Shown: positions 16,433 to 48,526 of the stretch, piece by piece
Position numbering within the stretch: the stretch's first letter is position 1
How the letters are laid out: every line of letters begins with the position of its first letter
Assembly (NCBI GenBank): GCA_018714785.1
Contig: DVMV01000024.1
Coordinates: forward strand, 1-48,888
DNA length: 48,888 bases
Reading direction: 5' to 3'
Source: Candidatus Alloenteromonas pullicola
Lineage (GTDB): Bacteria; Bacillota_I; Bacilli_A; RFN20; CAG-826
Notes under the pieces: generated by a model
The model's database searches: none
Told to the model about the DNA's origin: nothing
Seen by the model: the letters and a program-made list of their open reading frames with translations, nothing else
Made by a program: the position numbers and the translations under genes

Positions 16433-17884
16433 TCACTCGGCGGCGTAGCTAGGCAAAGTCGTCGAGTTTATGTCGGAGAGGGTGAAGCGGATGAAATATT
16501 CCTTTCCCTGAATCGAGAAGCTGGCCAAGACGGTTTCGATCGCTGTTTTCTCCTCGTTGAGGGTGACGACCAGGCGGTCGGTCGAGCCATCAAGAGCGCC
16601 CGACTGCACGCCTAGCATCCCGTTGTCAAAATAGATTCCAAGGTTTGGGACGATAAGGGTCTCCGCTTCGTACGTCCTGTCGCCCGTCTTTTTGAAAAGC
16701 GCGGGATTGACCGAAGAGAAATCGGGCCCAAGGCCTTCGAAGGAGTCGATGGTGTAGACCGTGGATGACGAGAGGGTCACAACGCTCCAATCCCATCCGA
16801 GATTGCCGTAATCGTACTGATACACATGGTATAGCCCGTCGGCAGGATCATAGACAGCCTTGTAGTCGTAATCGTCGCCGCCCTGATACGGATGCTCGTC
16901 AGAAGCGGCAGAACGCTGGGAGTAATAGGCCATGTCGTCGCGGACGAAGTAGCCGGTGGTCCAGGTGGTGCGCTCGCCATCCCAAGAGGAGAGGAACTCC
17001 TTGTTGTAGGTGTAGGAGTCGACGCCGTCGAGGCAGTGCAGGGCCGCGGCGAGGTCGGGGTTGTCGTGGCTATAGGGCTGCAGGTGGGCGACCGGCTGCT
17101 CGCCGAGGCTGCGGTCGTAGGTGACGGTGAGCTCGTTGGTCCTGGTGTAGCGGCCCTCCTCGCGGAGCTCGGAGATGTCGAAGGTCAATGAGTCGATCCC
17201 GCCATCGGCGCCGAGGTTGAGGGCGATGTCGTCGACGTAGTTGATCGAGGTCCCGCCATAGCAGGTGACCACGAACTGGGCTTTCGCGCCCTGCAGGTGG
17301 AGGCTGCCGTCCTCTTCCTCGATGATGTCGCTGGCCCGGATGTAGTCCCAGGGGTTGCGGAACAGCGAATCGAAGGCATAGGGGCGGTAGGCCCCGGTGG
17401 TGTCGTTGTAGTCGGAGAGGTAGGAGCTGTTGACCGTGTTGTCGATGGTGATCGACTCCTTGATCGCGAGCCCGGTCTCCTCATCGCGGAAGTAATAGGC
17501 CTGCGGGTCGGTGTAGCCCCACTCGGTCGAATCGACCTTGTCGGTGAGCTTGTAGTCGTAGGCGTTGTAGCTGTACTTCTCGGTGTAGGCACGCACCGCG
17601 CCGTACTGGTGGACGATGTCGTAGGTCTTGCCCTGGTGGATGCCGACCTCCAGCGGGTCGTCGCGGTAGACGTCGGTGGCCATCTCGATGAGGGCGCCAT
17701 GCGTCTTGTGCGCGAGCGAGGCGAGGGCCCTCTGGGCCTTTTCCGTCCCCACCGGAAGCGTCGGCAGGGTCACTTCATCGCCGTCGGCGGAGGAGGATTC
17801 CTGCATCGAGGAGGAGCCGGTCCCCCCGCAGGCGACGAGGGAGAGGGCCAACAAAGGGGCCAATATGAGCAATTTAGCGTTCAT
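16433..17884 (-). CDS. Uncharacterised lipoprotein (two-domain family member)
   Basis: Lipobox SLVA-C, Ser-rich linker, acidic and Tyr-rich body; motifs shared with the two upstream genes; SD AGGAGG. Confidence 0.85.
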   Translation of the reverse strand: MNAKLLILAPLLALSLVACGGTGSSSMQESSSADGDEVTLPTLPVGTEKAQRALASLAHKTHGALIEMATDVYRDDPLEVGIHQGKTYDIVHQYGAVRAYTEKYSYNAYDYKLTDKVDSTEWGYTDPQAYYFRDEETGLAIKESITIDNTVNSSYLSDYNDTTGAYRPYAFDSLFRNPWDYIRASDIIEEEDGSLHLQGAKAQFVVTCYGGTSINYVDDIALNLGADGGIDSLTFDISELREEGRYTRTNELTVTYDRSLGEQPVAHLQPYSHDNPDLAAALHCLDGVDSYTYNKEFLSSWDGERTTWTTGYFVRDDMAYYSQRSAASDEHPYQGGDDYDYKAVYDPADGLYHVYQYDYGNLGWDWSVVTLSSSTVYTIDSFEGLGPDFSSVNPALFKKTGDRTYEAETLIVPNLGIYFDNGMLGVQSGALDGSTDRLVVTLNEEKTAIETVLASFSIQGKEYFIRFTLSDINSTTLPSYAAE

Positions 17885-17896
17885 TTTCTTTCCTCC

Positions 17897-19156
17897 TTAT
17901 TCAGCGAAGCTGGTGTCGAGCCAGCTCGGCATCGCGGTCGAGCCGACCTCGGAGAAGCTCGCGGTGATCGAATACGGGCCGTATTGGAAGTCGTAGTAGC
18001 CGATGCTAACCTCAGACATGGTCTCGCCGTCTAGGCTAACGTAAGCATAGAAGGGCTCGACCGAGGAGACCGAGAAGGCGGAGGGCACGAGGTCGCGGCT
18101 AAGCAGCGGCACCGCGTCGGGTAGGAAGGCGTAGACGCCCTCGGACTGCTTCTGGAGCACCTCCGGCGCGATCTTGGAGTAGTTCGGCAGGTAGTTGGCG
18201 ATCTGGTAGTTGATGCCCGTGGTCGACCAAGAAGCGGTCGCGGCGGAGTAGCGGTAGCCGGTCGCCCTGCTTCCGGCGCCCTGGACGTAGTAGGTGTCGC
18301 CGTCCACCGGGTAGGGGAGGCTCGGGTCGCCGTGGATGTAGAGGCTATCGCCGGAATAGTAATAGGTATAGCCGAGGCGGAGGTCGTTCTCCGCGACGGT
18401 CACGGTGTAGTTGGTGCCAAGCCCCTGCAAGGCGGACTTCAGCTCGGGGTTGTCCTCGGCGCCGACCGAGATGCGGCCGAAGCTCTCCTTGAGGATCCCG
18501 AAGGAGAGGTCGACGGTCAGGGTGGACTCGCCGATGAACATGCCCGAGGTGCTCTCGATGGCGTCGGGGCGGACCGGGCAGGTGAACTCCAGGGTGACCT
18601 TGGAATCGGCCGGGTTCTCCAGGTCATAGCCGGAGAAGGTGGCCGCGGTCACCGGGAAGTCGAGCCCGAAGTAGGCGTTGAGCATGAGCTCGGCCTTCTG
18701 GCTGGAGAGGCTCGAGCCCTCTATGTCGGATGGGTTGATGTAGTCGAAGGGGTCGTAATAGGCCGAGGCGTAGACCAGGTCCATGCCGAAGTCCTCGTCG
18801 ACGACCGACTCGAGCTGGTTCTGGTAGTTGAGGGTGTCGTGGTAGGAATACCCGTCGCTCCCCTCGTAGTGGATGGTGTCGGAGGCCGGCCCGTGGTCGC
18901 GGATGGCCTCGTGCTCCTCATCGTCGAAGGTCACGGCGCCGTAGTCGCGGTCGACGGAGTAGGTGGCTATGGAGTTCAGCGACTCCAATCCCTCGCCGTA
19001 GTCGGTGGTGAGGACGGCGCTGCCCTTAACGTTGTAAGGCAGCTGGAACAGCCGCAGGTACTCCGGCCCTTCCTCGGCGGAGGAGGGGAGGGCGGCGGAG
19101 GTCGCGGCTAGGGGCAATAGAAGCGGCAGCCCCAATGCCAGATATGTCTTTCTCAT
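17897..19156 (-). CDS. Uncharacterised secreted protein (same family, no lipobox)
   Basis: Sec-type signal MRK..LALGLPLLLPLAATSA without Cys; ATGA overlap with the upstream gene; shared motifs. Confidence 0.83.
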   Translation of the reverse strand: MRKTYLALGLPLLLPLAATSAALPSSAEEGPEYLRLFQLPYNVKGSAVLTTDYGEGLESLNSIATYSVDRDYGAVTFDDEEHEAIRDHGPASDTIHYEGSDGYSYHDTLNYQNQLESVVDEDFGMDLVYASAYYDPFDYINPSDIEGSSLSSQKAELMLNAYFGLDFPVTAATFSGYDLENPADSKVTLEFTCPVRPDAIESTSGMFIGESTLTVDLSFGILKESFGRISVGAEDNPELKSALQGLGTNYTVTVAENDLRLGYTYYYSGDSLYIHGDPSLPYPVDGDTYYVQGAGSRATGYRYSAATASWSTTGINYQIANYLPNYSKIAPEVLQKQSEGVYAFLPDAVPLLSRDLVPSAFSVSSVEPFYAYVSLDGETMSEVSIGYYDFQYGPYSITASFSEVGSTAMPSWLDTSFAE

Positions 19157-20652
19157 CCTTGGTAGCTCCCTAGATATAGATCGAAGGTGTCGAGGACGCC
19201 GTCGAGGTTGTGGGCGGTGATGTCGGTGGTCCCGAAGTCGGAGTAGGACACGGTGGTCACGCAGTCGCCGCCGAAGGCCTCGGAGGCGAAGTAGAGCTTG
19301 AAGACCGGGTAGCCCGCCTCGTCGATGCTGACCTCAAGCCGGTCGAAGCCGAAGGTGAAGCTGGTCGTCGACTCGACGTACCAGCCGCTCATGCGGGTCG
19401 GGTAGTCGCCGACGCCGAAGACGGCGGCCATGATGTCGAAGCAGAGGCTGTAGTCGAGGTACGGGAAGTCGGTCAGGTCGAAGACGTAGCCCTCGCCGTC
19501 CTTCTCGAAGAAGGCGGTCGAAAGCGACTGGATGAACGGCACGGCCCCGTCATCGACGGTGTAGGCGTCGGCCGATAGCGTCGCGGCGTAGCCGTTTGAG
19601 CCCGCGGTTCCAGGAGTGACCCCGATCTGGTAGTAGCCGTCCTTCCCCGCCGCTTCGGCGGTGAAGTAGGCCAGCCCGGTGTAGGTCGTGCCATAGGAGG
19701 CATCGGTCAAGGGCATGTCGGTGATCATGAGCTTGCGGCCCCCGAACTTGCCAGCCAGGTCGTAGTAGGACTTGTACTCGCCATGAGTCGGGACCTCGGT
19801 TCCGTCGACCAAGGTGGTCTTGACGTTGGTGGTGAAGTTCAGCCCCTGGACGCCTTCGTAGAGCTTCTGGAAGGAAGCGGTGAGGCGGGAGAGGTCCGCC
19901 TCATCAAGCGATGAGGTATACGGGGTGAGAGGGGTCACCGCGTCGATGGCGGAGAGCTCGACGACGTAGTCCTCGGCCATGTAGCCGTAGGCGTCGGCGA
20001 GGACGTTGGCGAACTTCGCTTGCTTCGGGGTGCCGGCCGAATCGACGGTCAGCTCGAAGTCCTCGATCAGCTGATAGGAGGTGAGGTAGTCGAAGCTATA
20101 CGGGTTGATGGTGTAGAGGAACCTCGACATCGCCGGGGAGATGAGGGCGGTCAGCAGATCGGTCCCCTTGAGGGTGTAGCCGCCTTCCGCGGTCTCCACG
20201 GTGAAGTAGCGCGAGAAGTTGGACGCGTTGATGCCAGAGAGGGCCTTGTAGCCGGAGTCGTAGTTGCCGGCGAAGGCGATCGGGAGGTTGGAGTCGTCGG
20301 TGACCTCGGTCGACTCGACGACGTTGTCGAGCCCGAGGGTGTTGAGCATGACGTAGCCCTCGCTTGAGGCGGTCACGTCGGACTGCAATAGCGGCATCCT
20401 GGTGCCGGTGAGGCAGAGGTCGCTATGGCGGGCGGTGGAGCTCACCTCGTCGGTCGCGGTGAAGGTCGCGCCCCCGAAGGCGGCGTAGCGCGGGGTGATG
20501 GTCGCCACCGACTTGATCGGGGCGGCGAAGAAGGAGGCGATGCTGCTTATCTGCGCATCGGTCAGCCCCACTTCCTCGGCTGTCGCGCCGGTGGCGGAGC
20601 AGCCGCAGAGGGCTAGCCCGCAAAGGGCGATGGCGGAATTTATCTTCTTCAT
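19153..20652 (-). CDS. Uncharacterised lipoprotein (same family, more divergent)
   Basis: Lipobox ALCG-C; TGATG coupling to the upstream gene; C-terminal VSYSDFGTT. Confidence 0.83.
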   Translation of the reverse strand: MKKINSAIALCGLALCGCSATGATAEEVGLTDAQISSIASFFAAPIKSVATITPRYAAFGGATFTATDEVSSTARHSDLCLTGTRMPLLQSDVTASSEGYVMLNTLGLDNVVESTEVTDDSNLPIAFAGNYDSGYKALSGINASNFSRYFTVETAEGGYTLKGTDLLTALISPAMSRFLYTINPYSFDYLTSYQLIEDFELTVDSAGTPKQAKFANVLADAYGYMAEDYVVELSAIDAVTPLTPYTSSLDEADLSRLTASFQKLYEGVQGLNFTTNVKTTLVDGTEVPTHGEYKSYYDLAGKFGGRKLMITDMPLTDASYGTTYTGLAYFTAEAAGKDGYYQIGVTPGTAGSNGYAATLSADAYTVDDGAVPFIQSLSTAFFEKDGEGYVFDLTDFPYLDYSLCFDIMAAVFGVGDYPTRMSGWYVESTTSFTFGFDRLEVSIDEAGYPVFKLYFASEAFGGDCVTTVSYSDFGTTDITAHNLDGVLDTFDLYLGSYQG

Positions 20653-22127
20653 CAGTTGGCCCTCCTTACGGTGATGGTGGCGCCTTCATCGGTGAGCTTG
20701 CCGACCTCGAAGGTCAACCCGAGCTCGGGGCGGACGGCCCCATTGCCGTCGAAGCGGAAGTCGTGGTAGAAGCCATCGACCAGCGATTCCTTGCCGAAGA
20801 CGTCGCCCTCATGCCAGAGGTTGTCGTCGGTGATGTACATCGGGTTGGTCATCTGGCGGTTGGCGCCGGTGCTGTCGAGCAGCTGGACGAGGGCGTAGTT
20901 GCCCGCGATGCCGTAGACCGCGTTCACGTTGCGGCCGGAGTTGGTGTAGGCGAAGTCGTAGGCCAGGTCGGAGTTGAAATCCGGCTCGCCATAATATGGG
21001 TAGAACCCGTCGTCTCCGCCGGCGACTAAGCGGGAATCGACTTTGTAGACCCTGACGGCCGGCTCGGTCAAAGAGGAGCCGGAGTTAAGCCCGGTCGGGG
21101 TGAAGTAGTCGATGAGCAGGTACTCGCCGAAGAACCCGGTGTCCTCGTTGGACAGAAGCAGGCTCTCGCCCGGGGCGATGGTGTAGGTCGCCTCGCCCTC
21201 AAGCGAGGAGGCGATGACCTTGGTCGGCTCGGTCCAGCCTAGCAGGTACTTGGTAAAGGGATTGTGGTCGGAGATGCCCTCCTCGGTGACGTCGGTGTAG
21301 CCAAGCGGGGCGCGGACGTTGCCCTGCAGGTCGCCGGTCTGGTCGGAGTATTCCGGCACGCCGAGCAGGTCGGCGATGGCCTTGATGAAGCGGACGTTCA
21401 TCGGGTCCTGGGTGCCGAAGTTGGTCCCAAGCGACCCGCACATCCACTCGGCGGCGTTGGCCTTCTCGGCGGAGACCAGCTGATCGCGCATGAAGGAGGC
21501 GACCAGCTGGTCCATGGTCTCGTCGCCGTAGGTCCAGGTTCCGTTGTAGGCCGGGAAGGGGTTGGCGACGATGAGGTTGTCGATCTTCCCGTCGCCGTCC
21601 TGGTCGTAGTCGGCTATTGAGTTGCCCTCCGCGACCCAGGCGTCGATCGCCTCATCCAATGCGGAGGCGATGACCGGGGAGGAGCCGGTGCTGGCTAGGT
21701 TGTTGATGAAGTCCTCGAAGGTGGTCGAGATGGTGACCGGGGCCTCGACCGAGCCCGAGAGGCTTAGCTTGCCGCCGCTGGATTGCTGGTAGTAGCTGAG
21801 GGCGGTGTAGCCGACGGGGCTCGACTCGAATCCGGAATCGAGGGCCAGGATGTCCGAGGCGGTAATCTTGAAGATGTCATCGCTGAAGCTGAAGGGGATG
21901 ACCAATACCTTCTGGTCGCCCTCGCTTCCCATCGCCCCGCTGCCCTGCGATTGGCGCAGCAGCGAAAGCGGCGATCCCTGCTTCTCGGTCTGGGAGGTGC
22001 CAGACGAGTCGGTTTCCTCGCCATCCCCCAGGGACGAGGTCCCCGCGGGTTCGCAAGCGGCCAATAGGAGGGCGGATAGGGCTAGCGGGAATATTGCCCG
22101 CGTTAACCTTTCCTTTTTCTTTGACAT
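20652..22127 (-). CDS. M6 (immune inhibitor A-like) metalloprotease-fold lipoprotein lacking HExxH
   Basis: Lipobox LLAA-C; GDQKVLVIPFSFSD, SYYQQSSGGKLSLSG, YDQDGDGKID, DHNPFTKYLLGW..P, EYLLIDYFTPTGLN and VRVYKVDSRL. The expected HExxH position reads KAIAD. Confidence 0.78.
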   Translation of the reverse strand: MSKKKERLTRAIFPLALSALLLAACEPAGTSSLGDGEETDSSGTSQTEKQGSPLSLLRQSQGSGAMGSEGDQKVLVIPFSFSDDIFKITASDILALDSGFESSPVGYTALSYYQQSSGGKLSLSGSVEAPVTISTTFEDFINNLASTGSSPVIASALDEAIDAWVAEGNSIADYDQDGDGKIDNLIVANPFPAYNGTWTYGDETMDQLVASFMRDQLVSAEKANAAEWMCGSLGTNFGTQDPMNVRFIKAIADLLGVPEYSDQTGDLQGNVRAPLGYTDVTEEGISDHNPFTKYLLGWTEPTKVIASSLEGEATYTIAPGESLLLSNEDTGFFGEYLLIDYFTPTGLNSGSSLTEPAVRVYKVDSRLVAGGDDGFYPYYGEPDFNSDLAYDFAYTNSGRNVNAVYGIAGNYALVQLLDSTGANRQMTNPMYITDDNLWHEGDVFGKESLVDGFYHDFRFDGNGAVRPELGLTFEVGKLTDEGATITVRRAN

Positions 22128-22289: not shown

Positions 22290-23906
22290 ATGAAAAACAA
22301 AGGAAAAATTCTGCTGGCGGCGGTCCTCAGCGGCGCCCTTATGTCGGGCTGCGGTGGGAACGTGTCCAGCAGCGGGTCCATCGACGGCGGAGGAACCGGT
22401 TCATCGACTGAATCTTCCACCGCCACATCGACCTCGGAAACCTCTTCCGAGGATTTGGCCGAGGAGCTGTCGGACTCCGCCAAGCTCAAGCAGAGGCTGC
22501 TTCTGGCCTCCGACAGGGTCGTCACCTCGCGCCGTCTGTCGGTCGACCTGTCCGGCACAATCTATGACGACGGCAAGACCGAGTCGGTCTCATTGGCCAC
22601 CGCGACCGAAGGGCTCCGCACCTACACCGAGACCCCAGCCGGCGGGACCACGCGCACCTACGTCAGCTACGACGGCATCCTCGGCAGCGACTACTACAGC
22701 GTCGATTCGGACACCTATGGCTATTCGATCCGATATAAGGTCGGCGATGGCGGCACCTACGACGAGGAAAGCGCCGCGGCGACCATCGAGCTCGAGCACC
22801 AGGAGACCGGTCTGAAGGGCGCCTTGGCCTACGACGAGGCCCTGCTCGGGATGCGGTTCCTCGAAGGCGGGGACGTCGAGTCCACCGACCCCTGCCTTCA
22901 CGAGGTCGAATACACCGTCACCGCCACCGAGGGCGGATACGAAGCGGTCTGGGAGTCCTACTACGAGAACACCGAGACCAGCTCAGAGTACTACTACAAC
23001 GGCAACTTCCTGATCATCGCCTCCTTCGACGAGGATCTCAACCTGGTGGGGCTGCAGTCGGACGTCACCATCGTCTTCCCCGGCGAATGGGACGCCTCGA
23101 TCCACGCGCCGCTATCCACCGCCACCCCGATCCACCGGCTCTATGAGCTAAGCGACATCGTCTACGCCGAATCCTACCCGGCGACCGATCCCGCCCACCC
23201 GATACTCACCAACCTCGACGATTACTTCGTGAGCGAGGTCACCTCGGCCTCGTTGGTCAGCTGGAACGCCACCGGCCCCGGCGGAGCCTTCCAGGTCGGC
23301 GACACCGTAAAGCTCGACGACTCGAGCATCGAATACGCCCCCTCGACCGCGCTCAACGCCAACTACCTCACCATCACCGGAGCCTCGGAGGATGGGGTCT
23401 TGGTCGAAGCCGAGAAGATGGGCATGACCGCCACCGTCTTCGGCAAGGCCGGAACCTTCGAGCTCTACGTCGGGGATGAGGTCAGCCCGAGGCTCGGCAC
23501 CATCACCGTCACCGTCTCCGAGGTCGACACCTCCGGCGGCTCCAACGTCTCCTCGATCGATTGGACCGGATACGAGCATTCCGAGGACGCCACCTGGACC
23601 GAGACCAACCCGGTTTACAACGTCACTGTCCCCTTCAACTTCAACTGGAACCAGGTTTGGGTGCGCGTCGACGACGGGACCCAGGCGATGCTCGACAGGA
23701 TAATCCCGTCCTTCACCAACTCCAGCGTCATGCAGGTCCACTTCCTGGAGGATCCTTCCATGGCCTCGGCCGGATACGCCATCATGGAATTCTACCCGGT
23801 CATGAACAACACCACCACTACCATGACCATCACCAACCCCGATCCCAGCAAAGCCTGGGGCGTCGAGACCATCACGGTCAACTTCACCGTCGTTCCCAAC
23901 GCCTAA
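22290..23906 (+). CDS. Uncharacterised lipoprotein with probable C-terminal beta-rich (Ig-like) domains
   Basis: Lipobox LMSG-C, Ser/Thr/Gly linker, beta-rich C-terminal half ending ETITVNFTVV. Confidence 0.85.
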   Translation: MKNKGKILLAAVLSGALMSGCGGNVSSSGSIDGGGTGSSTESSTATSTSETSSEDLAEELSDSAKLKQRLLLASDRVVTSRRLSVDLSGTIYDDGKTESVSLATATEGLRTYTETPAGGTTRTYVSYDGILGSDYYSVDSDTYGYSIRYKVGDGGTYDEESAAATIELEHQETGLKGALAYDEALLGMRFLEGGDVESTDPCLHEVEYTVTATEGGYEAVWESYYENTETSSEYYYNGNFLIIASFDEDLNLVGLQSDVTIVFPGEWDASIHAPLSTATPIHRLYELSDIVYAESYPATDPAHPILTNLDDYFVSEVTSASLVSWNATGPGGAFQVGDTVKLDDSSIEYAPSTALNANYLTITGASEDGVLVEAEKMGMTATVFGKAGTFELYVGDEVSPRLGTITVTVSEVDTSGGSNVSSIDWTGYEHSEDATWTETNPVYNVTVPFNFNWNQVWVRVDDGTQAMLDRIIPSFTNSSVMQVHFLEDPSMASAGYAIMEFYPVMNNTTTTMTITNPDPSKAWGVETITVNFTVVPNA

Positions 23907-36398: not shown

Positions 36399-36999
36399 CG
36401 GCGACCTCCTGTAGCGAGCTTATCTGCTCCTTCTCGCCCAGCCTCCCCCTAAGCGGGGGGAAGGCGATGGCTGGGTCTATCATACCATCGCTTATAAGAC
36501 GGAAGGAAACCTCTTCCCCATAGGTAGCGCTTTCTATGCTAAGCCCCAGCCTAGACGCCAAGCGGGAAAGCTGCTCGAACTCGGAGTATGGCAGGCTGCA
36601 GGACTGGGAATAGCGGACCGACATCACGGCGTAGCGGCAGCTAGACAAGGCGGCTTTGGCCGCCTCCACCACCTTCCGGCGGAGGTTGCCGACCCCGAGC
36701 TTCCTCCCGCCAAAATACCTAGCCACGGCCACCAGTCCGCATATGCCCTCGCCCCGAAGCAGGTCGAGCAAGGGGCGGCCGCTGGAATTGGCGGGCTCGC
36801 CATCCTCCGAATAGGCCTCCTTGTCAGGGCCGAGGTAGCCATATGGGATGTGGGCGGCCTTCTTGTTGGCCTCCACCACCTCCTCTAGAAGCCCCTTGGC
36901 TTCCTCGAAGGACTGGCAGGGGAAGGCGTAGGCGAGGAACCTCGAGCCGAGCATCTCCGATTCCCCGTTTGAGGGGGAATAGATATAGCGCTCGCTCAT
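36385..36999 (-). CDS. yigZ: YigZ/IMPACT family protein
   Basis: SRFLAY, A.H..YGY, EDGEP..SSG.P and RYFGG.KLG.G.L. Confidence 0.88.
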   Translation of the reverse strand: MSERYIYSPSNGESEMLGSRFLAYAFPCQSFEEAKGLLEEVVEANKKAAHIPYGYLGPDKEAYSEDGEPANSSGRPLLDLLRGEGICGLVAVARYFGGRKLGVGNLRRKVVEAAKAALSSCRYAVMSVRYSQSCSLPYSEFEQLSRLASRLGLSIESATYGEEVSFRLISDGMIDPAIAFPPLRGRLGEKEQISSLQEVADAHQ

Positions 37000-39900
37000 A
37001 TTAGCAGGCCCGCGGCCGCCTCGTAGGAGAATAGCGCCGGCGTCCCGGCGATGGCGTTGAGCATGTCGCTGCCCTCAAGATTGGTGACGTAGGCCATGAA
37101 GTCGTCCTGATCATGGGCGGTGGAGTCGTAGACCAAGCCGAGGTAGAGCATGTCGGCGAGGATCCGCCGCTCGCCGGCGTAGTCGCCGAAGGACCTTAGG
37201 GCGTCCTGGCGTGAGGATAGCGGGTTGCCGTCGCTCTTCCCATAGGCCAGGCAGGCCTTGTGGAAGGGATCGGCGTAGGTTCCGTCGATGACTTTCCCCA
37301 GGTCGTCGATCGCGGTGAGGAAGGACGCGTCTTGCCCCCCGAAGGCCTCGATTCGATAGGGGCCGCTGGGCATCTCGATCCCGTCGAATGAGGTCGAGAA
37401 CAGCTGCGAGCAATCCAGGTAGGAGAGCGTGTTCGCGGCGATCGACTCGATCTCCCCGGCGAGGATGTACTGGAAGAAGGCCGGCTTTCGCTCCGCCCAA
37501 AGCGAGGAGACGTCGAAGGCCGAGGCGACGGTGGTGAAGCCGACGTTTTGCCCCGCGACCTCGACGTTGGGCGACTGGAAGGAGGAGTTGATGGCCTTTA
37601 TCGCGGAGGCGGCGAGATGCCCGGAGGAGGCGGAGAGCACGGTGGAGACCGCCTTGGCGTACCCCTCGAGGGCTATGATCGACACCAGGTTGCCATCAAG
37701 GTAAGCGGCGTCGCCGGATAGGTCGGGGTAGCTTCCGTCGCCCCTACGCCCGATGAGGCTATTCAACGTCACCAATGACCCAGCCATCCCGCTGCCGTCG
37801 AGGTCGAGGTGGGAGAAAAGCGACGCCTGGACCGGGATCAGCAGCCCGGATCCGAAGTCGATGCTCTGGTTGACGGTGAAGATGCTGTAGAGCGCGTATT
37901 CGCGGGCCTCGATTGGGGAATCGGGGGCGATCTCGGATGGCAGCAGCCCGGAGGCGGAGTATTCCTTATCGAAGATGGTCGACTGCTGGTAGAACTCCAG
38001 CAGCGAGAGGCTTTCCAGCCCGGCGTCAAGCAGGTTCTTAAGCGGGGTGTCGCCCTCGAAGCTAACGTAGGCGCCATTCTGCTCGTCGTAGATGGAGTAT
38101 AGGAGGTTCCTGATCAGGTCGAGGTCGACCTCGCGCAGGTCAGTTTGGGAGAAGTGGTAGTCGGAGAGGTCGTAGGCCAAGGTGAGCTCCTCGTTCGGGG
38201 ATAGCTTTATCCTCGAGGGCGAGGCGAAGTTGGAAAGATCCGCCGCGTTGCCCTCGACCAGGCCCTGCGCGGAGAGGTCGATCGGCTCATCGAGCCCGTC
38301 GACGTAAAGCAATGGCGCGGTCTGGCCTATCGAATCGGCGGTGAGGCTTATCGCCCGGCCGCCCCCGGTGAGAAACGGCGTCAGATCGAAATAGCCTTCC
38401 CCGTCGGCGAAGAAGGTCCCGGTCACGGTCGTGAACCTGCCGAGGTCGACCTGCTCGAATACCTGCCCGAGCTTGTTCGGCAGCAGGTTGGGGACGACCT
38501 CAAGCCGGGCCGCCCTTTCCATGAAGCCGGAAAGCGTGTCGGGCTCGATGGAGGTGAGGCTATCGAGGCTGAGGTTGCCGTCTTGGTCGACGAGGTCGCT
38601 GTTGAGCACGAGGTCGAGCAATCCCCCTTTCCGCCCGTCGGTGGTTAGGGAGTTGATCTCCTCGCCCCAGCTATGGGTCGCCGAGTCGCGGAAGGAGAGG
38701 ATCGAGTCGTGGAGCATCTGCTTATACCCGTCCTGCGGGTGATCGAGGTAGATCTGCAGGTAATCCCTCATGGAGAAGGAGTTGGAGGCGAGGCCGGTGT
38801 CGTCGTAGATGAGGTACATCAGCTGCTCAAACACCGTGAGGTCGTTAAAGGCGTAGCCATCGCTCCCCCAGCCGGCTTGCAGGCTTATCCCGGCGTCGGA
38901 TAGGTAGGAGGAAGAGAAAGGCAGGTTGAAGACGTAGCTGTTCTCCATGTCCACCAAGATCGAGCGGAGGACCATCGGGTCGAGGGTCGAGAGGTCGGCG
39001 AGGCCGGAGGAGGAGAACAGGTCGGAGTTGCGCCCGATGTAGGAAAGGGCGGAGCTGAGCAGATAGATCTCGGAATCGTCGTACCTCGCGTTCCAGTCGG
39101 GGCCGCCGACGCGGGATTTGCCATCCTGCTGGTAGTACTGGTAGAAGACGTTGGCGGAGGAGAAGTCGATGCCCTCGATGGCGAACGACTCCCCGGAGTT
39201 GACCATGGTGTGGATTATGTTTGGCACGAGGTCGTAGAAAAGCGGCGAGTCGTTGAGCGTGGTCAGCAACGAGGCGAAGACGCTCGGCCGGATGGCGTTG
39301 ACGTCGAGGACGCCGTCGGAGAGGATCGAGTACATATCGTCAGACTGCAAAAGCGAGAGCACCTCGCCCAGCGAGGCGATGGCTTCGCCCCCCTGCCGCA
39401 TAGAGGCTTCGGAAGCCCCGCCCGGCTGGATGCTCGGCATGACGGTCGCGACCAAATAGCGGGCCTTGGCGCGGACGTCGGCATCGGCCTCCCCGGCCTT
39501 TTCGTAGGATGCGTATTCGCTATCCAGCGCCCGATCCTTCGGGCTTTCCTCAAAGTAAAGGTAGCCCTTGATGGCGTCGAAGCAAAGCAGGTCCGAGACG
39601 AGGTATTGGAAGGAGGTGACGCCGTCCTCGCCTACCGTCTGGTTGAAGACGTGGCTCTGCATCATCTTCTGCAAGGCGTCGGTTATGGCGGCTGAGTCGA
39701 TGGTCGAGAGGTCGTTGAGGGTGAAGTCGGAGCACTCGGCCAGGTCGGCGAGCATGTCGACCAGGTTGTCGGTCTCGCCGTCAGGGTACATCCCATAGTC
39801 ATCCCCGCCCTCCTGGGCGTCGAAGTACGGATCGGCATAGTTGAGGAAGTTGTTGGCGAAGCTCGCGTCCCCGAACAGGTGGTTGTGGCCGTTGTTTTCG

Positions 39901-42900
39901 CCCTTGAAGGCTTTCTCGAGCATCGTCGGTATGGCGCGGTAGAAAAGGGAGGACGAATTCAGATCGTTGAAGATGGACTTCAGGCCGTCCACCTTCCCCT
40001 GCTTCTGCGCCCCGGTCCCGAAGAAGGTGGCCGGATCGGAGACCGAGTCGAGGTTCAGCCCGCCGTCGGAGCCGACCAGCCCGGATTTCTGGGCCGAGTC
40101 GACGATGTCGCAGATAATCGAGATCTCGAGGTCCCATTCGCCATCGTCCACCCCGTCGACGATCGTGCGGATCGACTTCTTGGTGTACTCGTTTATCGGC
40201 GAGGCGATGAACTCCTGATAGTCCTGCCCGGATTCCCGCTCCCCGTAGATCGTCGAGGTGGCCAGGACGTAGTCGACCAGCTGCTTGAACACCGGCCGCT
40301 TGCCCTCCTCGGCGGTGGATAGAAGCTTCGAGGAGGAGGCGCTCTCCAGCAGCGGGCGGAGCTGGAACTCGCTGTTTATCGTGCCGAGGTTGATGTCATC
40401 CAAGTTGACCTGCCCGTCCTTGTAGATTCCGTAGGATGGGTCGAATATCACGTCGAGGGCGGCGAAAAGGGTCGCGACCTCCTCTTGGTTGGCCGCCATA
40501 TCCCCGTCGGTTAGGCTCGGGTAGCCAAGGCTCAGGTCCTCGCCGTCGAAGTGCAGGAAGAAGGCGCTGTTGATGCAGGAGAAGTCGATCTCCGGGGTCG
40601 AGGCCTCGTCGCTTAGTCCCCCGATCGCGGCGTGCAGGCCGTTGTAGAGGACGACCCGGCCGAGCGACCTCGAGGTGGCGAGGGCGCCCATCGCCTTCTC
40701 CATCCCGGGCAGCGATTCGTAGGAGAAGCTGGATATCGCGCTGAGCCCGCCGATCGACGATATGGCGTCGAGGATGTCGCTGACCTTCGATATCTCGCCT
40801 TCCGCGCCGGTCCAATCCCCGCGCTCGCTGAGCGACTCGACCATGTCGTGGTAGAGCAGCTCGGTGTGCTCCTTCTTCTGCTCAAGCGTGGTCAGGCTGG
40901 CTGGGTCGACCTGGTCGTTCGGGTCCAGGAAATAGGAAAGCGCGTCGCCGCTGAGGGAGCCGACGAGCTTGTTGTAGAGGAACTTGGGGAAGAGGTATTC
41001 CCCATCGCGGGAGGTGAATATCCCCGAGTCGGCGAGCCGGGTCAGCAGCTCCCCGACGTTGGGGCCGATGGCGAAGAAATCGAGGTTCGACAGGTCGATG
41101 CCCTTCGCGGCCAAGGCGATGATCGACTCGATGGCCTCCCCCTCCGCCTTCCAATCGGTGATGTTGGTGAAGGAGACGCCCTCCGTGTCATCTCCGAACA
41201 GGGGCTTGATGATGTAGCCGTCCAAGGCCTGCCCCGCCATCTTCGAAAGCAGCTGCGAATTCCCTATCGACTCGAACACCGAGGCGATGTCGACCCGGGA
41301 TAGGGCCGAGACGGCCTGGTTGGCGTCCCCGCCGGTGATCGAGGAGAGGTTCTCGACCAATCCGGAGCTCACGACGCTGCATAGCGCGTCCACAAGGAAG
41401 TAGGTCTCGCCCTTGACCGTTATGTTCCCATCGTCGTCGTATTCCGAGGTGAGGTTGCTGGGCAGATCCTCGGGGGTCAGGGGCTCGAAGGACACCGCGT
41501 CCCCCACTTTCTCCATGAGCGTGTTGACAAGGTTGCAGAAGTTCACGTTTTGCTTCCCGTCGATGACCGGGTTGATGATCTTCGAGGAGAGGATGGCGTC
41601 TAGGATGTAGGCGAACTCGTCTTCGGCCTCGACGATCAGCGAGGTCATGGTCGAGGTGCCCATCGATTCGAACTTGGCGAAGCTGCTGACAAGCACCGGG
41701 CAGTATTTGGCGATCTTGAGGAGCTTGGAGATCTCCGAGCCGAGCGAATCGCATTCGAAGTCGAGGTGCTCGATGCCATATTCCTGAAGGGGGACGTTCT
41801 TCAAAGCCCCCTCGGCGATCGTCGGAAGGTTGGAGGAGAGGATGACCGACCTGTCGGCGTTTGGCAGGCAATCGATGAGGGCGTCAAGCAGGCCCTCGTC
41901 GATGGAATAGAGCTTCCCATCGGGGTCGAAGTTGATGCCCTCCAGCCCCTTTACGTCGAGCAGGAAAGCCTTGCCCGATTCGGTTGAGGCGAAGTCGGAG
42001 ACTAGGTCGAGTATCGAGCCGAGCTCGCGCTTGAAGTTGATGCGGGTGGCCCCGGAGTCGTAGCTCACAAGCTCGGACTCGGCCTCGGATAGGTCGAGGT
42101 CAAAAGGCAGGTTGGCGGCGTCTAGCTGCTTCTGGGCGAACGGGAGCAGGTCGTCGAGGGCGTTGCCGATCAGCTGCGAATCCAGAAGGCTCTTCTTCGA
42201 GGTGGATATCCCGTCTTCCCCTACCTCGACCGGGTTGCCCGAGGCATCGCGCTTGCCGACTATGACCTCGACTATCTCGGCGGAGTGGTCCACGACGAAA
42301 TTAAGCGCCTTGTCGAGGATGGTCCCGGATTGGCCTTCGCCGCTTTTTTTGGCGGCCTTGGGCGAGCTGCTGCCCCCGATGGTCGGCAATTCGTCGAATA
42401 GGCCTTCCATCTGCTCCTTGTCGATGCCGACGAGCGAATAGAACGCGTCGTAGACAAGGCCGAGCTCATCGAACCACTTCGTCTGGGCGACCTTCTTATA
42501 GGAGATCGACCCATCGGGTTCGCTGGGTAGGAAGCTGGCGAGGCTCAGCTCGCCTTCCCCCGGGGTAGATCCATCCTTGGTGGCCATGGTGTAGACCGCC
42601 CCGGCCAGCAGGTGGTTGATGAAATCGCTGTCGGCCTTGGAGAGGGCGCTGTGGAATGCGTCGTAGGCCTCCTGGTCCTTGAAGATCGAGAATAGCTGCC
42701 TGAGGTCGATGATCGGGGTCTTCGATACCTCGTCGACGATCACGTCGAAGAATCCGGAATCGAGCAAATCAACATAGAAATCGGATAGGTTCTCGAGCTC
42801 GTCGGCGTAATCGTAGTTGGCCGAGCTGATATAGGATACGGCATCCTCGCCGAGTATCGATTTGACCTGATCGATGTTCAGGGCGATCGAGACGGCAATC

Positions 42901-43961
42901 GGAAGGGCGACCCGCACCAGCTCCACCGAGGCGACCTGCTGCAGCAGGGTTGGGATTAGGGTCGAGGCGATGAGGGTGCTCCATTTGGTGCCGTCAGCGG
43001 AGAACATCGACAGCAATCCCGAGTTGATGACGCTGGTTCCGACCTCGGCGATCGAGGCGAGCTCGCTCAAGACATCAATCTTGATGTCGCCGCTGTTGGT
43101 GCTGGTGAGGAAGGATATGAGCTGCGAATCGATGGTCTGGGTCCCGTCTTGGCCCTCAACCGAGAAGAAAACCTTGGCGAAGATCGAGTTCTCATAGGCG
43201 TCAAGGCAGTCATAGACCAGCCCCACCGTCTCATCCTGCTCAGAGGCCCCTTTGTCGACTTCAAGGTTCTTGGAGATGGTGTTGACCACCGAGCTGAGGG
43301 GGGCGACGATCATGGCCATGCACACCGTGGCCACCGCAAGCTGCTCCACGCCGGAGAGCAGGCGCAGCCTGCGCTTGGGGCGCCGCTTGACGATCACCGG
43401 TTCGGAGGTATCGCCGCTTGGATAGGTCTCGACTGGGCGCTTCCTGGCGAATAGGAACTTGAAGCAGATATGCCAGAGTATCCAGACCAGCAGCGACCCG
43501 AGGATGGCGATGATGATGCCCTCGGCGAAAATCAGCACCAGCTTCAGGACCGAGCCGGCGAGGGCTTGGGAATAGGCGACGATGTCATCGCTTGAGGCCG
43601 CCACCCCATAGGCCCGCAGAAGCTGGTCGAAAAACGACGTCAGGGTGTCGGATATCGTGGTGACGTTGACGGTAATCGAGTGCCCTTGGATCTGAACGGT
43701 TATCGGATTGGTGATGATTCCGGATAGGTCGTAGCCGGAGATGGCGTCCACCACCGGTCCGAGGGTGACCAGGCCAAGCGCCACCAATACTCCGATGAAC
43801 ACCATGTGGTAGGTGCCGTATCGCCAGCCCTGCAGCAGCCCCCATAGGAAGGCGATCACCAAGATCCCGAGGATGGAATAGAAGGCGATGTTGGCGGCCA
43901 GCTGGATTATAGAAACTATCTGCTCACCGTTGATGGCAGATCCCAACAGATTAATATCCAT
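36996..43961 (-). CDS. Giant membrane-anchored acidic helical-repeat protein (CvpA-like N-terminus)
   Basis: Uninterrupted 2321-aa ORF; about 4 N-terminal TM segments, then about 2100 aa rich in L/D/S with recurring (W)xxE[IL]xx[IL]xx[IL] motifs; ATGA overlap with yigZ. Confidence 0.85.
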   Translation of the reverse strand: MDINLLGSAINGEQIVSIIQLAANIAFYSILGILVIAFLWGLLQGWRYGTYHMVFIGVLVALGLVTLGPVVDAISGYDLSGIITNPITVQIQGHSITVNVTTISDTLTSFFDQLLRAYGVAASSDDIVAYSQALAGSVLKLVLIFAEGIIIAILGSLLVWILWHICFKFLFARKRPVETYPSGDTSEPVIVKRRPKRRLRLLSGVEQLAVATVCMAMIVAPLSSVVNTISKNLEVDKGASEQDETVGLVYDCLDAYENSIFAKVFFSVEGQDGTQTIDSQLISFLTSTNSGDIKIDVLSELASIAEVGTSVINSGLLSMFSADGTKWSTLIASTLIPTLLQQVASVELVRVALPIAVSIALNIDQVKSILGEDAVSYISSANYDYADELENLSDFYVDLLDSGFFDVIVDEVSKTPIIDLRQLFSIFKDQEAYDAFHSALSKADSDFINHLLAGAVYTMATKDGSTPGEGELSLASFLPSEPDGSISYKKVAQTKWFDELGLVYDAFYSLVGIDKEQMEGLFDELPTIGGSSSPKAAKKSGEGQSGTILDKALNFVVDHSAEIVEVIVGKRDASGNPVEVGEDGISTSKKSLLDSQLIGNALDDLLPFAQKQLDAANLPFDLDLSEAESELVSYDSGATRINFKRELGSILDLVSDFASTESGKAFLLDVKGLEGINFDPDGKLYSIDEGLLDALIDCLPNADRSVILSSNLPTIAEGALKNVPLQEYGIEHLDFECDSLGSEISKLLKIAKYCPVLVSSFAKFESMGTSTMTSLIVEAEDEFAYILDAILSSKIINPVIDGKQNVNFCNLVNTLMEKVGDAVSFEPLTPEDLPSNLTSEYDDDGNITVKGETYFLVDALCSVVSSGLVENLSSITGGDANQAVSALSRVDIASVFESIGNSQLLSKMAGQALDGYIIKPLFGDDTEGVSFTNITDWKAEGEAIESIIALAAKGIDLSNLDFFAIGPNVGELLTRLADSGIFTSRDGEYLFPKFLYNKLVGSLSGDALSYFLDPNDQVDPASLTTLEQKKEHTELLYHDMVESLSERGDWTGAEGEISKVSDILDAISSIGGLSAISSFSYESLPGMEKAMGALATSRSLGRVVLYNGLHAAIGGLSDEASTPEIDFSCINSAFFLHFDGEDLSLGYPSLTDGDMAANQEEVATLFAALDVIFDPSYGIYKDGQVNLDDINLGTINSEFQLRPLLESASSSKLLSTAEEGKRPVFKQLVDYVLATSTIYGERESGQDYQEFIASPINEYTKKSIRTIVDGVDDGEWDLEISIICDIVDSAQKSGLVGSDGGLNLDSVSDPATFFGTGAQKQGKVDGLKSIFNDLNSSSLFYRAIPTMLEKAFKGENNGHNHLFGDASFANNFLNYADPYFDAQEGGDDYGMYPDGETDNLVDMLADLAECSDFTLNDLSTIDSAAITDALQKMMQSHVFNQTVGEDGVTSFQYLVSDLLCFDAIKGYLYFEESPKDRALDSEYASYEKAGEADADVRAKARYLVATVMPSIQPGGASEASMRQGGEAIASLGEVLSLLQSDDMYSILSDGVLDVNAIRPSVFASLLTTLNDSPLFYDLVPNIIHTMVNSGESFAIEGIDFSSANVFYQYYQQDGKSRVGGPDWNARYDDSEIYLLSSALSYIGRNSDLFSSSGLADLSTLDPMVLRSILVDMENSYVFNLPFSSSYLSDAGISLQAGWGSDGYAFNDLTVFEQLMYLIYDDTGLASNSFSMRDYLQIYLDHPQDGYKQMLHDSILSFRDSATHSWGEEINSLTTDGRKGGLLDLVLNSDLVDQDGNLSLDSLTSIEPDTLSGFMERAARLEVVPNLLPNKLGQVFEQVDLGRFTTVTGTFFADGEGYFDLTPFLTGGGRAISLTADSIGQTAPLLYVDGLDEPIDLSAQGLVEGNAADLSNFASPSRIKLSPNEELTLAYDLSDYHFSQTDLREVDLDLIRNLLYSIYDEQNGAYVSFEGDTPLKNLLDAGLESLSLLEFYQQSTIFDKEYSASGLLPSEIAPDSPIEAREYALYSIFTVNQSIDFGSGLLIPVQASLFSHLDLDGSGMAGSLVTLNSLIGRRGDGSYPDLSGDAAYLDGNLVSIIALEGYAKAVSTVLSASSGHLAASAIKAINSSFQSPNVEVAGQNVGFTTVASAFDVSSLWAERKPAFFQYILAGEIESIAANTLSYLDCSQLFSTSFDGIEMPSGPYRIEAFGGQDASFLTAIDDLGKVIDGTYADPFHKACLAYGKSDGNPLSSRQDALRSFGDYAGERRILADMLYLGLVYDSTAHDQDDFMAYVTNLEGSDMLNAIAGTPALFSYEAAAGLLI

Positions 43962-46305: not shown

Positions 46306-46332
46306 AAAAGGCCACCTCGCGGTGGCTTTTTT
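46306..46332. terminator. Bidirectional intrinsic terminator
   Basis: AAAAG-GCCACC-tcgc-GGTGGC-TTTTTT between convergent genes. Confidence 0.8.
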
Positions 46333-46337
46333 GCTGC

Positions 46338-47069
46338 CTAAGCGCTTAGCTCCGTCGTTCCGTATTCGGAGAAAGAGCAGGAGACGACGAATCGGTCGAT
46401 TGTGATTACCGGCTCAGGCTCGCCATCTCCGTTCTCAACCGATACGAAGGGGCCGATTATGGACACGAATATCCTGCTCAGGCGGTGGCTCTGGTCGAAC
46501 GTCAGCTGCGCGATCCCCGAAAGACCGCCATCCCCGTCGCCGCTTACCTCCAGCCCAAGGTCCATCCCGACGATCACCTCCAGCGCTTCGGAGGAATCGA
46601 GTTCGTTTTGGTAGATGCCGCCGACGTTCTCGTAAGAGGCATATCCCGATGCGAAGGCGGAGAAAGAAAGTGACGGGTTTGCCGGCCCGGCATGAGGGGC
46701 CTCGGTGGTCTGCCCATCGGAGGTGGTGGTTGCGACATAGCCCCCATTATCGTCCTTCCTGATCTTCGACTCGGTTTGCTTCAGCTTGCCGTCGGTGTTC
46801 TGCTTGGTGGTGATGTCGGCTTCGCCGGAAACGTATTTAGCGCGCGAATCGCCGGTGGCGCTCATGGTTTTCTCATCGGCCTCGCCGCGGATGGTCATCG
46901 CCACCGTCTTGGTCTGGAAGATCGTAACGTTGTCGAGCCCCTCGGCGGAAAACGCCGCCGTCCATTGCTGCTCATCGACGGTCGATCCGCCTTTGGAGAT
47001 GCCGTTGAAGACGATTGAGCAGGAGCATAGCGGTATGGCCAAAAGCGCCACGGGGATTCTTAGGTTCAT
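46338..47069 (-). CDS. Uncharacterised lipoprotein (single-domain family member)
   Basis: Lipobox PLCS-C; EQQWTAAF..NVTI; C-terminal FSEYGTT; GGAGG SD. Confidence 0.82.
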   Translation of the reverse strand: MNLRIPVALLAIPLCSCSIVFNGISKGGSTVDEQQWTAAFSAEGLDNVTIFQTKTVAMTIRGEADEKTMSATGDSRAKYVSGEADITTKQNTDGKLKQTESKIRKDDNGGYVATTTSDGQTTEAPHAGPANPSLSFSAFASGYASYENVGGIYQNELDSSEALEVIVGMDLGLEVSGDGDGGLSGIAQLTFDQSHRLSRIFVSIIGPFVSVENGDGEPEPVITIDRFVVSCSFSEYGTTELSA

Positions 47070-47113
47070 TGATTGCCTCCAAATAAGATATTACACCGCG
47101 CGCCAAGGCAAGG

Positions 47114-47138
47114 AAAAGGGGCGGCAGCAACCCGCCCC
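47114..47138 (-). terminator. Intrinsic terminator
   Basis: Minus strand GGGGCGG-7 nt-CCGCCCC-TTTT after the stop at 47150. Confidence 0.65.
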
Positions 47139-47149
47139 GATGAGTTATC

Positions 47150-47806
47150 TCAATAGTTGCGGTCGAGCACCGTCGAGCCGTAATCGGTGAAGTCGATGGT
47201 GACGGTCAATCCGGCCCCGGACCCCTTGACGTTATCCGTGGAGAGCACGACCTTGCCGATCTTCTTCTGCTCGTTGAAGCGGATCTCGACGTCGATGCTC
47301 GCCCCCGTCCCGAAGAAGGAATCGGAATAATCGGCCCCAGCAAGCGAATATGCCCCATCATCATAATCGAAATCCGAATAAGCCGAGGCCCAAGGAATCA
47401 TGGCCGTCGGGAAGGTGAACGGGTTAGCCGAGGCGACATACTCATTGTACTCGCTAAAGTAGTACATCTTAAATCCATCGCCGGTTTCCCGGTAGTAACG
47501 GCTCTCGACGAGCGGATCGCCGTCGATGACCACGTCGGTTATCGTGTCGGCTTCCCCGGCGGCGAATTTGAGCGTCATGGTGCCGGTGGCTAGGTAATAG
47601 TCGCCGTCGCCGGTCACCTCGCCTACAAGAGCGGCGGTCTCAACCACCGTCACGTTGCGGAAGCTGTTCTCGTCGAATGCGTCCACCCATTCCTGCTCGC
47701 TGACCTCGACCGGGGCTTGGGGCACGTCGCCGCTAGAAGTGCCAAACGCGCAGCCAGAAAGCCCGATGGCAACTATGGCAAATAGAAATATGCAGTTCTT
47801 GTTCAT
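47150..47806 (-). CDS. Uncharacterised lipoprotein (single-domain family member)
   Basis: Lipobox GLSG-C; EQEWVDAF..NVTV; C-terminal FTDYGST; GAGGT SD. Confidence 0.85.
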   Translation of the reverse strand: MNKNCIFLFAIVAIGLSGCAFGTSSGDVPQAPVEVSEQEWVDAFDENSFRNVTVVETAALVGEVTGDGDYYLATGTMTLKFAAGEADTITDVVIDGDPLVESRYYRETGDGFKMYYFSEYNEYVASANPFTFPTAMIPWASAYSDFDYDDGAYSLAGADYSDSFFGTGASIDVEIRFNEQKKIGKVVLSTDNVKGSGAGLTVTIDFTDYGSTVLDRNY

Positions 47807-47914
47807 TCCGTTACCTCACATTGGAATACTTTAATGGGAAGCAACGACGAACGTCAATGCTAAAATATGTCAACCAAACAATTTTGATTGACGTTATTTC
47901 GTTATTCGGCACCA

Positions 47915-48526
47915 CTACTGCAAAGCAGTCGATCCATAGGAGGTGAAGCTAAGGCTAAGCTCCAAAGGCGCGGAAGCGCTCGAGGCCGAATGGTGGCTAT
48001 ATGATCCGCCGCCGAACTTCAAATCGACTTTTGAGACCCGAAGCGCCCCGTCGAAAAGCACCTCGGACTCCACCGAATCGGGCAAGGAAAGGAATTCGAC
48101 GATCCCGCCCAAAGATTCGGCGGCGTCGCAGGCGCGCTCAATCCCCGATTGGGCAAGCGTGGACATATAGGATCCGAAGTAATAGCCATAATCGGAGAAG
48201 CTGTCGGCGAATAGCCCCAATAATGGTCGGAGGTCGACTGTGGCGACTAAAGAAGGGAACAAAGCGCCTTCCTCGATGCTCAAATCATAATAGAAATCCT
48301 CATCCGGATAGCTGACGTTCCAAGAGGCCTGCTCCCCATCGGCAAGCAAAGCGAAGGAGGCAAGCTCCTCACCCGAGGAGGTGAGCTTCCCGTCCAAAGT
48401 GAAATCGACGAACCTGGATGGGTCGAAAGCGCCCTTCCATTGGGCCTCGGTCATCACCGAGTTCAGTATCGAGCAGGAGCATAGCCCAACCGATGCGATT
48501 ATCATGGTCAACCTTGGCATTCTCAT
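47915..48526 (-). CDS. Uncharacterised lipoprotein (single-domain family member)
   Basis: Lipobox GLCS-C; EAQWKGAF..DFTL; C-terminal FTSYGST. Confidence 0.8.
   Translation of the reverse strand: MRMPRLTMIIASVGLCSCSILNSVMTEAQWKGAFDPSRFVDFTLDGKLTSSGEELASFALLADGEQASWNVSYPDEDFYYDLSIEEGALFPSLVATVDLRPLLGLFADSFSDYGYYFGSYMSTLAQSGIERACDAAESLGGIVEFLSLPDSVESEVLFDGALRVSKVDLKFGGGSYSHHSASSASAPLELSLSFTSYGSTALQ

Follow-up and report, generated by a model that had tools for sequence, protein, structure and literature searches.

What are the three small lipoproteins encoded side by side at one end of a 48,888-nucleotide stretch of the Candidatus Alloenteromonas pullicola genome (contig DVMV01000024.1; the whole stretch is hereafter called the window), and how are they related to three much larger proteins encoded elsewhere in it? 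The small genes, designated S1 (46338..47069), S2 (47150..47806) and S3 (47915..48526), all lie on the minus strand and encode proteins of 243, 218 and 203 residues. Each product (3/3) has a hydrophobic signal sequence at its N-terminus, with a lipobox that reads LCSC in S1 and S3 and LSGC in S2. An earlier note, drawn from the sequence alone, had described a tandem trio of lipoproteins bracketed by a start motif, E-x-x-W-x-x-A-F followed by [ND]-[VF]-T, and by the C-terminal motifs FSEYGTT, FTDYGST and FTSYGST. The translations of the open reading frames (ORFs) bear this out for all three proteins. The note went on to propose that one domain of roughly 200 residues, with a possible LolA/LppX-like fold, is shared by the trio and the large proteins in a six-member family, and here the answer is more differentiated.

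Judged by their sequences, S1, S2 and S3 are diverged paralogues: BLASTP pairs S1 with S2 at E = 9e-11, S1 with S3 at 4e-4 and S2 with S3 at 4e-3, S3 being the most diverged of the trio. A phmmer search against all 4,633 genome ORFs of at least 60 residues returned a single link, that of S1 with S2. The relatives of the trio were found further afield. A HMMER scan of 1,835,955,588 representative sequences retrieved 34 proteins at E ≤ 1e-3, of which 9 reach E ≤ 1e-10 and 4 reach E ≤ 1e-30. They are either single-domain lipoproteins of about 190–270 residues or longer and repeat the unit in tandem two to six times, as do P0014 (419 residues, two units), P0007 (605 residues, three units) and P0010 (1,139 residues, six units). 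Every unit starts with T-x-E-x-W-x-x-A-F, followed by N-V/Y-T, and ends with F-S/T-D-Y-G-T-T-x-V-x-L-P. A hidden Markov model (HMM) built from 33 domain units of other organisms only, with the trio left out, matched S2 at 4.5e-20, S1 at 8.8e-9 and S3 at 2.4e-6 among the 4,633 ORFs. These external-only matches place the trio, at the level of sequence profiles, in an unnamed Bacillota family of domains of about 180 residues.

All six proteins, small and large, stay below every Pfam and NCBIfam cut-off, and in none of the 14 family proteins that were scanned is the unit covered by a Pfam family. One of these 14 carries a Big_2 domain, and the best hint of a named family among them was a sub-threshold DUF6612 match over the C-terminal strands of P0009 (E = 0.0063, 16.6 bits). 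A profile search of the PDB with 18 family members gave an unrelated Corynebacterium protein as its best match (E = 0.037), and a word-indexed search with S2 returned S2 itself only. One family member, in Candidatus Scatoplasma merdavium, is annotated merely as ‘Lipoprotein’. We conclude that the small proteins belong to a real, newly recognised and unnamed family of an already known fold.

The family is sparsely distributed. The trio profile matches 3 of the 201 genomes of the order: the present one, a genome of the same genus (G106) with two matching genes, and a genome of another family (G196) with one 256-residue lipoprotein that carries the same bracket motifs. A profile of six sequences matched 14 of 401 genomes at E ≤ 0.01, but 11 of these matches are weak and doubtful (E = 6e-4 to 8e-3). 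Six of the 11 were inspected and none proved to be a relative: L010, L011, L013, L014 and L015 are unrelated proteins, and L009 is a low-complexity lipoprotein whose signal peptide alone accounts for the match. In a phylum-wide sample, the threshold of E ≤ 1e-4 was reached in at least 12 of the 399 genomes scored, a floor given that at most seven candidates were scored per genome; all 12 belong to the same class and have sizes of 1.0–2.1 Mb. The A. pullicola genome itself holds at least two further ORFs that match the small-protein profile, which makes the proposed membership of six inexact. One is a 262-residue lipoprotein (C39:10004-10792, plus strand; E = 7e-4, and 1.1e-13 with an 18-sequence profile), the other a 716-residue lipoprotein (C25:6196-8346, plus strand) with the small-protein domain at residues 387–560 (independent E-value (iE) 0.004).

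To describe the fold of the small domain, we relied on predicted models. The AlphaFold2 model of S1, built on a six-sequence alignment, has a mean predicted local distance difference test score (pLDDT) of 79.7 and a predicted template modelling score (pTM) of 0.77. Along the chain, a short helix leads into six long strands; a second helix, a pair of short strands, a third helix and a final set of three long strands follow. A Foldseek search with this model ranks LprG first (E = 1.5e-5, probability 1.0). The ESM Atlas model of S2 (pTM 0.72) has as its nearest neighbours unnamed Bacillota clusters, DUF6612 (template modelling score (TM) 0.64) and LppX_LprAFG (TM 0.59–0.61). The small domain is thus predicted to be an open antiparallel half-barrel with helices, as in LprG, LprF and LppX of the LolA superfamily, and the fold guessed in the earlier note finds support in both models. 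We hold the family and its predicted fold, taken together, to be very probable.

The large proteins, B1 to B3, are encoded on the minus strand in an operon whose first gene specifies an M6-like lipoprotein (20652-22127; TIGR03296, E = 8.9e-13, below the cut-off). It is followed by B3 (19153-20652; a 499-residue lipoprotein with the lipobox LCGC), B2 (17897-19156; a secreted protein of 419 residues whose signal peptide has no lipobox cysteine) and B1 (16433-17884; a 483-residue lipoprotein with the lipobox LVAC). Their ends are as previously described: LSDINST in B1, FSEVGST in B2 and YSDFGTT in B3. That B1 is a paralogue of B2 is clear from sequence comparison, where hhalign aligns the whole proteins at 97.1% (E = 6e-11, 265 columns) and the C-terminal halves alone at 93.4% (E = 2.6e-7). 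B3 is weakly linked to this pair, its C-terminal half matching that of B2 at E = 0.0014 (17.8%), and it is a weakly supported third large member.

The predicted structure of B2 (14-sequence alignment, pLDDT 77.2, pTM 0.65) runs through the same order twice, at residues 34–221 and 237–402: helix, six strands, helix, strand, helix, three strands. This predicts two half-barrel domains in tandem, at about 31–232 and 234–419. The Atlas model of B2 31–232 is nearest to unnamed two-domain Bacillota clusters (TM 0.65–0.69). Among named families it resembles DUF6612 (0.53), DUF2092 (0.47) and TP_0789-like proteins (0.45), all of which we take to be LolA-like. BFA1 and AttH, the top Foldseek matches of the whole B2 model, were set aside at TM 0.12–0.18. 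B1 and B2, and probably B3, therefore look like two LolA-like domains in tandem. In the large proteins, the N-terminal half is probably the additional LolA-like domain, a reading in which we have moderate confidence, and the C-terminal half of B1 (about 270–483) would have the LprG fold. Within a given large protein, hhalign found no significant similarity between the N-terminal and C-terminal halves (E = 0.015–0.5), which leaves predicted structure as the basis for an internal duplication.

Are small and large proteins then one family? In the models of S1 and B2, the bracket noted in the sequences corresponds to the first helix and first strand at one end and to the last strand at the other. 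Both the motifs and the structural order of B2 thus speak for the shared domain, but no sequence test detected significant homology, and several results weigh against a single family. BLASTP between small and large proteins covers only the last strands (E = 0.03–0.1). HMMs of the trio, which had been expected to hit the large proteins, matched 3/3 small and 0/3 large proteins at E ≤ 0.01, and HMMs built from the large halves matched no small protein. A 38-unit HMM reached B1 at residues 291–477 with an iE of 0.022 (whole-protein E = 1.1) and B3 with an iE of 1.6, and gave no match to B2. When compared with 20 column shuffles per half, only the C-terminal half of B3 clearly exceeded its controls (hhalign with the 38-unit alignment, confined to the last 46 columns: 30.7, the highest-scoring shuffle reaching 20.1); B1 was marginal (18.1 versus 15.8). 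An hhalign comparison of the small trio with the large trio was discarded, having aligned the wrong region at 42% probability, as was a more global alignment to B2 (mact 0.05), which placed the unit on the N-terminal half (E = 0.2). Extending the HMM with the C39 and C25 proteins still did not recover B1–B3. Since the small-protein HMM misses the large proteins, a single shared family is a matter of structural inference and a short motif.

These results bear on an alternative in which the small and large proteins are separate LolA-like branches whose end motifs are convergent or required by the fold, so that no six-member family exists. It would account for the failure of every sequence method to link both sets at significance, and for the finding that HMMs of the B halves hardly find each other, B3 finding neither B1 nor B2. 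The motif evidence is likewise open to this explanation: a regular expression for the six C-terminal motifs selects exactly those six of the 4,633 ORFs, at 3–23 residues from the C-terminus, but it was designed post hoc on these very sequences. Against this stands the agreement of the S1 and B2 models, whose top three PDB matches are identical and fall within one range of Z. In addition, the sub-threshold matches of the external-only HMM are not scattered. Its 12 rows with iE < 5 comprise the trio, the C39 protein, a 771-residue ORF (C10:27164-29479) and C-terminal halves of the B family, and those matches that fall short of significance lie in register on the B-family halves or on the other large ORF. 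The C-terminal halves of B1–B3 behave in this way, as do those of their orthologues (iE 0.051 for B3, 0.38 for B1 and 1.6 for B2). Moreover, the C25 protein, which has a B-like helix motif, matches the small-protein HMM over positions 9–179. We consider separate branches rather unlikely. For B2 the small–large link holds by predicted structure, within the large proteins it is the second domain that most resembles the small ones, and we infer that the two sets are homologous.

The closest known systems differ from these proteins in several ways. LprG, LprF and LppX (PF07161; PDB 3mh9, 4qa8 and 2byo) are 8–16% identical in structural alignments, and hmmscan against Pfam-A at E ≤ 1 found no PF07161 match in 6/6 proteins (S1–S3, B1–B3). 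A genome-wide search with PF07161 at E ≤ 10 gave zero matches as well, a result of little weight given that its control was likewise silent. The half-barrel sheet with helices that typifies LppX_LprAFG proteins is present in the predicted models, and the lipobox is present in S1, S2, S3, B1 and B3, with B2 as the member without the cysteine. In contrast to mycobacterial LprG and LppX, the host has a single membrane and no outer mycomembrane, and the Bacillota family includes tandem two-domain and multi-domain forms. LolA and LolB score lower than LprG and LppX in structural comparisons, and no Pfam LolA match was obtained. Unlike in LolA/LolB systems, there is neither a periplasm nor an outer membrane here, and the proteins themselves are lipid-anchored. 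DUF6612 (PF20316), which comprises uncharacterised Bacillota lipoproteins, is the named Pfam family that comes closest in the Atlas structure comparisons, as seen for S2 and the N-terminal half of B2. At its cut-off of 23.7 bits it is reached by 0/14 relatives, it has no match in the genome at E ≤ 10, and our literature search returned no paper mentioning it.

What could such domains do in this organism? The uncultured chicken-gut host has a genome of 1.05 Mb in 41 contigs, 86% complete. A lack of fab genes had been raised as a check in the earlier note, and indeed no ketoacyl synthase of the FabF/B type (PF00109) was found in this genome or in any of five relatives, four of which are 94–100% complete; the search was positive in 14/14 known genomes used as a control. 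Mur_ligase_M had no match in the 86% complete genome, and the five relatives yielded one match above and one below the cut-off. Two DegV genes and Lgt are present. The host is apparently wall-less, and its gene profile fits a fatty-acid auxotroph that depends on outside fatty acids.

Given the apparent lack of fatty-acid synthesis and of a wall, surface capture of hydrophobic ligands suggests itself as a role for these domains. S1–S3 would be membrane-anchored lipoproteins of one domain of about 180 residues each, probably transcribed separately. Each domain would consist of a short helix (T-x-E-x-W-x-x-A-F), a first strand (N-V/Y-T) and the intervening fold up to a closing strand (F-S/T-D-Y-G-T/S-T). 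Placed on the outer face of the cell's only membrane, the domains would hold hydrophobic ligands from the gut contents, such as fatty acids, acyl-lipids or sterol-like molecules. These ligands might then be handed on, either to the membrane or into the fatty-acid kinase pathway (DegV/FakB), while the exposed surfaces would change quickly under phage or host pressure. In this picture, the hydrophobic cavity, its ligand and the direction in which that ligand is carried are putative. LprG, a carrier of the same fold, is described as binding triacylglycerides (PMC4709180, PMC10576003) and as working with an adjacently encoded pump of the major facilitator superfamily (PMC6519032).

We favour the explanation that the proteins are surface lipoproteins of LprG fold with hydrophobic-ligand binding, although as a whole we give it slightly less than an even chance. 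Lipid handling proper is a more tentative proposal: it is suggested by the fold of acyl-lipid carriers, the missing fatty-acid synthesis and the DegV genes, but other observations count against it. Nothing like the pairing of LprG with the transporter Rv1410 is seen here, the trio having no transporter gene among its neighbours and the B genes following the M6-like gene. A LolA-like fold can also serve a non-lipid role, an example being GerS, which is described as activating an amidase (10.1101/2025.01.13.632879). Finally, the patchy occurrence of the family is easier to reconcile with a dispensable surface protein than with an essential route of uptake.

The pattern of divergence bears on this last point. 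The earlier note had called the family rapidly diverging, and comparison with the same-genus genome G106 agrees: S1 is 60–62% and S3 70% identical, whereas the flanking TraX-like, thioredoxin and Rce1-like proteins are 97%, 95% and 88% identical. Synonymous divergence (dS) is 1.37 for S1 and 1.03 for S3 versus 0.23–0.50 for the flanks, and nonsynonymous divergence (dN) is 0.24 versus 0.02–0.08. The high dS, together with a dN/dS of 0.17–0.23 for S1 and S3, indicates that the locus is far older than its surroundings or has been exchanged more often, rather than simply being positively selected. S2 is missing from the syntenic locus of G106 (window 47070-47980 versus L033 6264-6405), where the flanks of the insertion or deletion align at 90.5% and 80.5% DNA identity. 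Contigs from public runs (X4 and X5), matched at 85% likeness and possibly derived from other organisms, contain equal-length diverged blocks in S1 and S3 (46332-46581, 46868-46947 and 48238-48433), which suggests mosaic alleles; the uncovered parts in run X5 are no evidence that S2 is absent there. By the same measure of sequence identity, the large-protein operon is diverging faster than its neighbour, as the trio locus does: in a related genome (G219) the uridine-kinase-like neighbour is 84% identical, and B1, B2, B3 and the M6-like protein are 55, 48, 44 and 41% identical.

All of this could be read as a variable surface coat, in which the proteins are dispensable antigens or phage-receptor decoys and the LprG-like fold is a stable scaffold with no part in transport. 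The low identity and high dS and dN of the trio relative to its flanks, the absence of S2 from G106, the diverged blocks and the sparse distribution in the order and the phylum are what a coat would produce. However, the dN/dS of S1 and S3 points to purifying selection overall, very distant relatives and multi-domain proteins retain the fold and the bracket motifs, and the trio locus showed neither repeats nor switching elements. Coat and binding roles are also compatible, and we regard a mere coat as unlikely. Less probable still are protein-binding adaptors of the GerS or RseB kind, where the partner of the large proteins would be a catalytically dead M6-like lipoprotein. The order M6-like, B3, B2, B1 is kept in G219, and the HExxH motif is absent from the M6-like protein and its G219 orthologue; the position that presumably corresponds to the zinc site of M6 proteases reads IKAIADLLGVPEY. 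The lipobox cysteine is lacking not only in B2 but also in the orthologues from G219, G165 and G357. A wall-less cell would be expected to lose B2 unless another protein held it there, and B2 may depend on such a partner for its attachment. GerS of Clostridioides difficile offers a precedent, described as a Firmicute lipoprotein of LolA-like fold with no sequence similarity to LolA (10.1101/2025.01.13.632879). Adaptors would leave the small trio unexplained, however, as no conserved partner gene lies near it. On balance we keep to LprG-fold surface lipoproteins that bind hydrophobic ligands.

The surroundings of both loci add some detail. A terminator-like hairpin follows each trio gene on the minus strand: directly past S1 (46311..46326), past S2 (47118-47138) and past S3 (47869-47892). 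A promoter-like site lies ahead of S2. All of these come from a consensus scan only, in which seven terminator-like sites were observed versus 3.2 +/- 1.8 in shuffles. With a hairpin of its own after each gene, S1, S2 and S3 may be transcribed as three separate units. Downstream lie the convergent thioredoxin gene and the TraX-like and Rce1-like genes, and upstream the genes for tRNA-Asp and tRNA-Gly. Elsewhere in the window, a 2,321-residue ORF (36996-43961, minus strand) has no Pfam match at E ≤ 0.001 and carries hydrophobic stretches at its N-terminus that look membrane-spanning; it may encode a giant surface protein. Divergent from the M6-like operon, a 538-residue lipoprotein (22290-23906, plus strand) belongs to no family. 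At 29% identity to its G219 counterpart, it is also fast-evolving.

How genome-reduced, uncultured gut bacteria acquire membrane lipids is poorly understood. The best-studied case is P116 of Mycoplasma pneumoniae, described as sitting on the surface of this wall-less, lipid-dependent bacterium and drawing lipids out of the environment (PMC10023570, PMC12487902). It uses an unrelated fold, reported as previously unseen and not LolA-like, so that P116 is a functional analogue only and no homology is claimed. The trio and B1–B3 might together constitute an independent counterpart of P116, an expanded and fast-evolving lipid-harvesting system of wall-less, fatty-acid-auxotrophic Bacilli in which the pocket would be kept while the surface varies under pressure from phages and immunity; we consider this broad view improbable, if a little less so than the adaptor role. 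A family of LprG/LppX fold, whose proteins carry between one and six copies of the domain, nevertheless supplies concrete candidates for lipid-binding work, and protein databases gain a family to name. Even if a variable coat turned out to be the truth, the locus would still help to track diversification among strains of chicken-gut bacteria.

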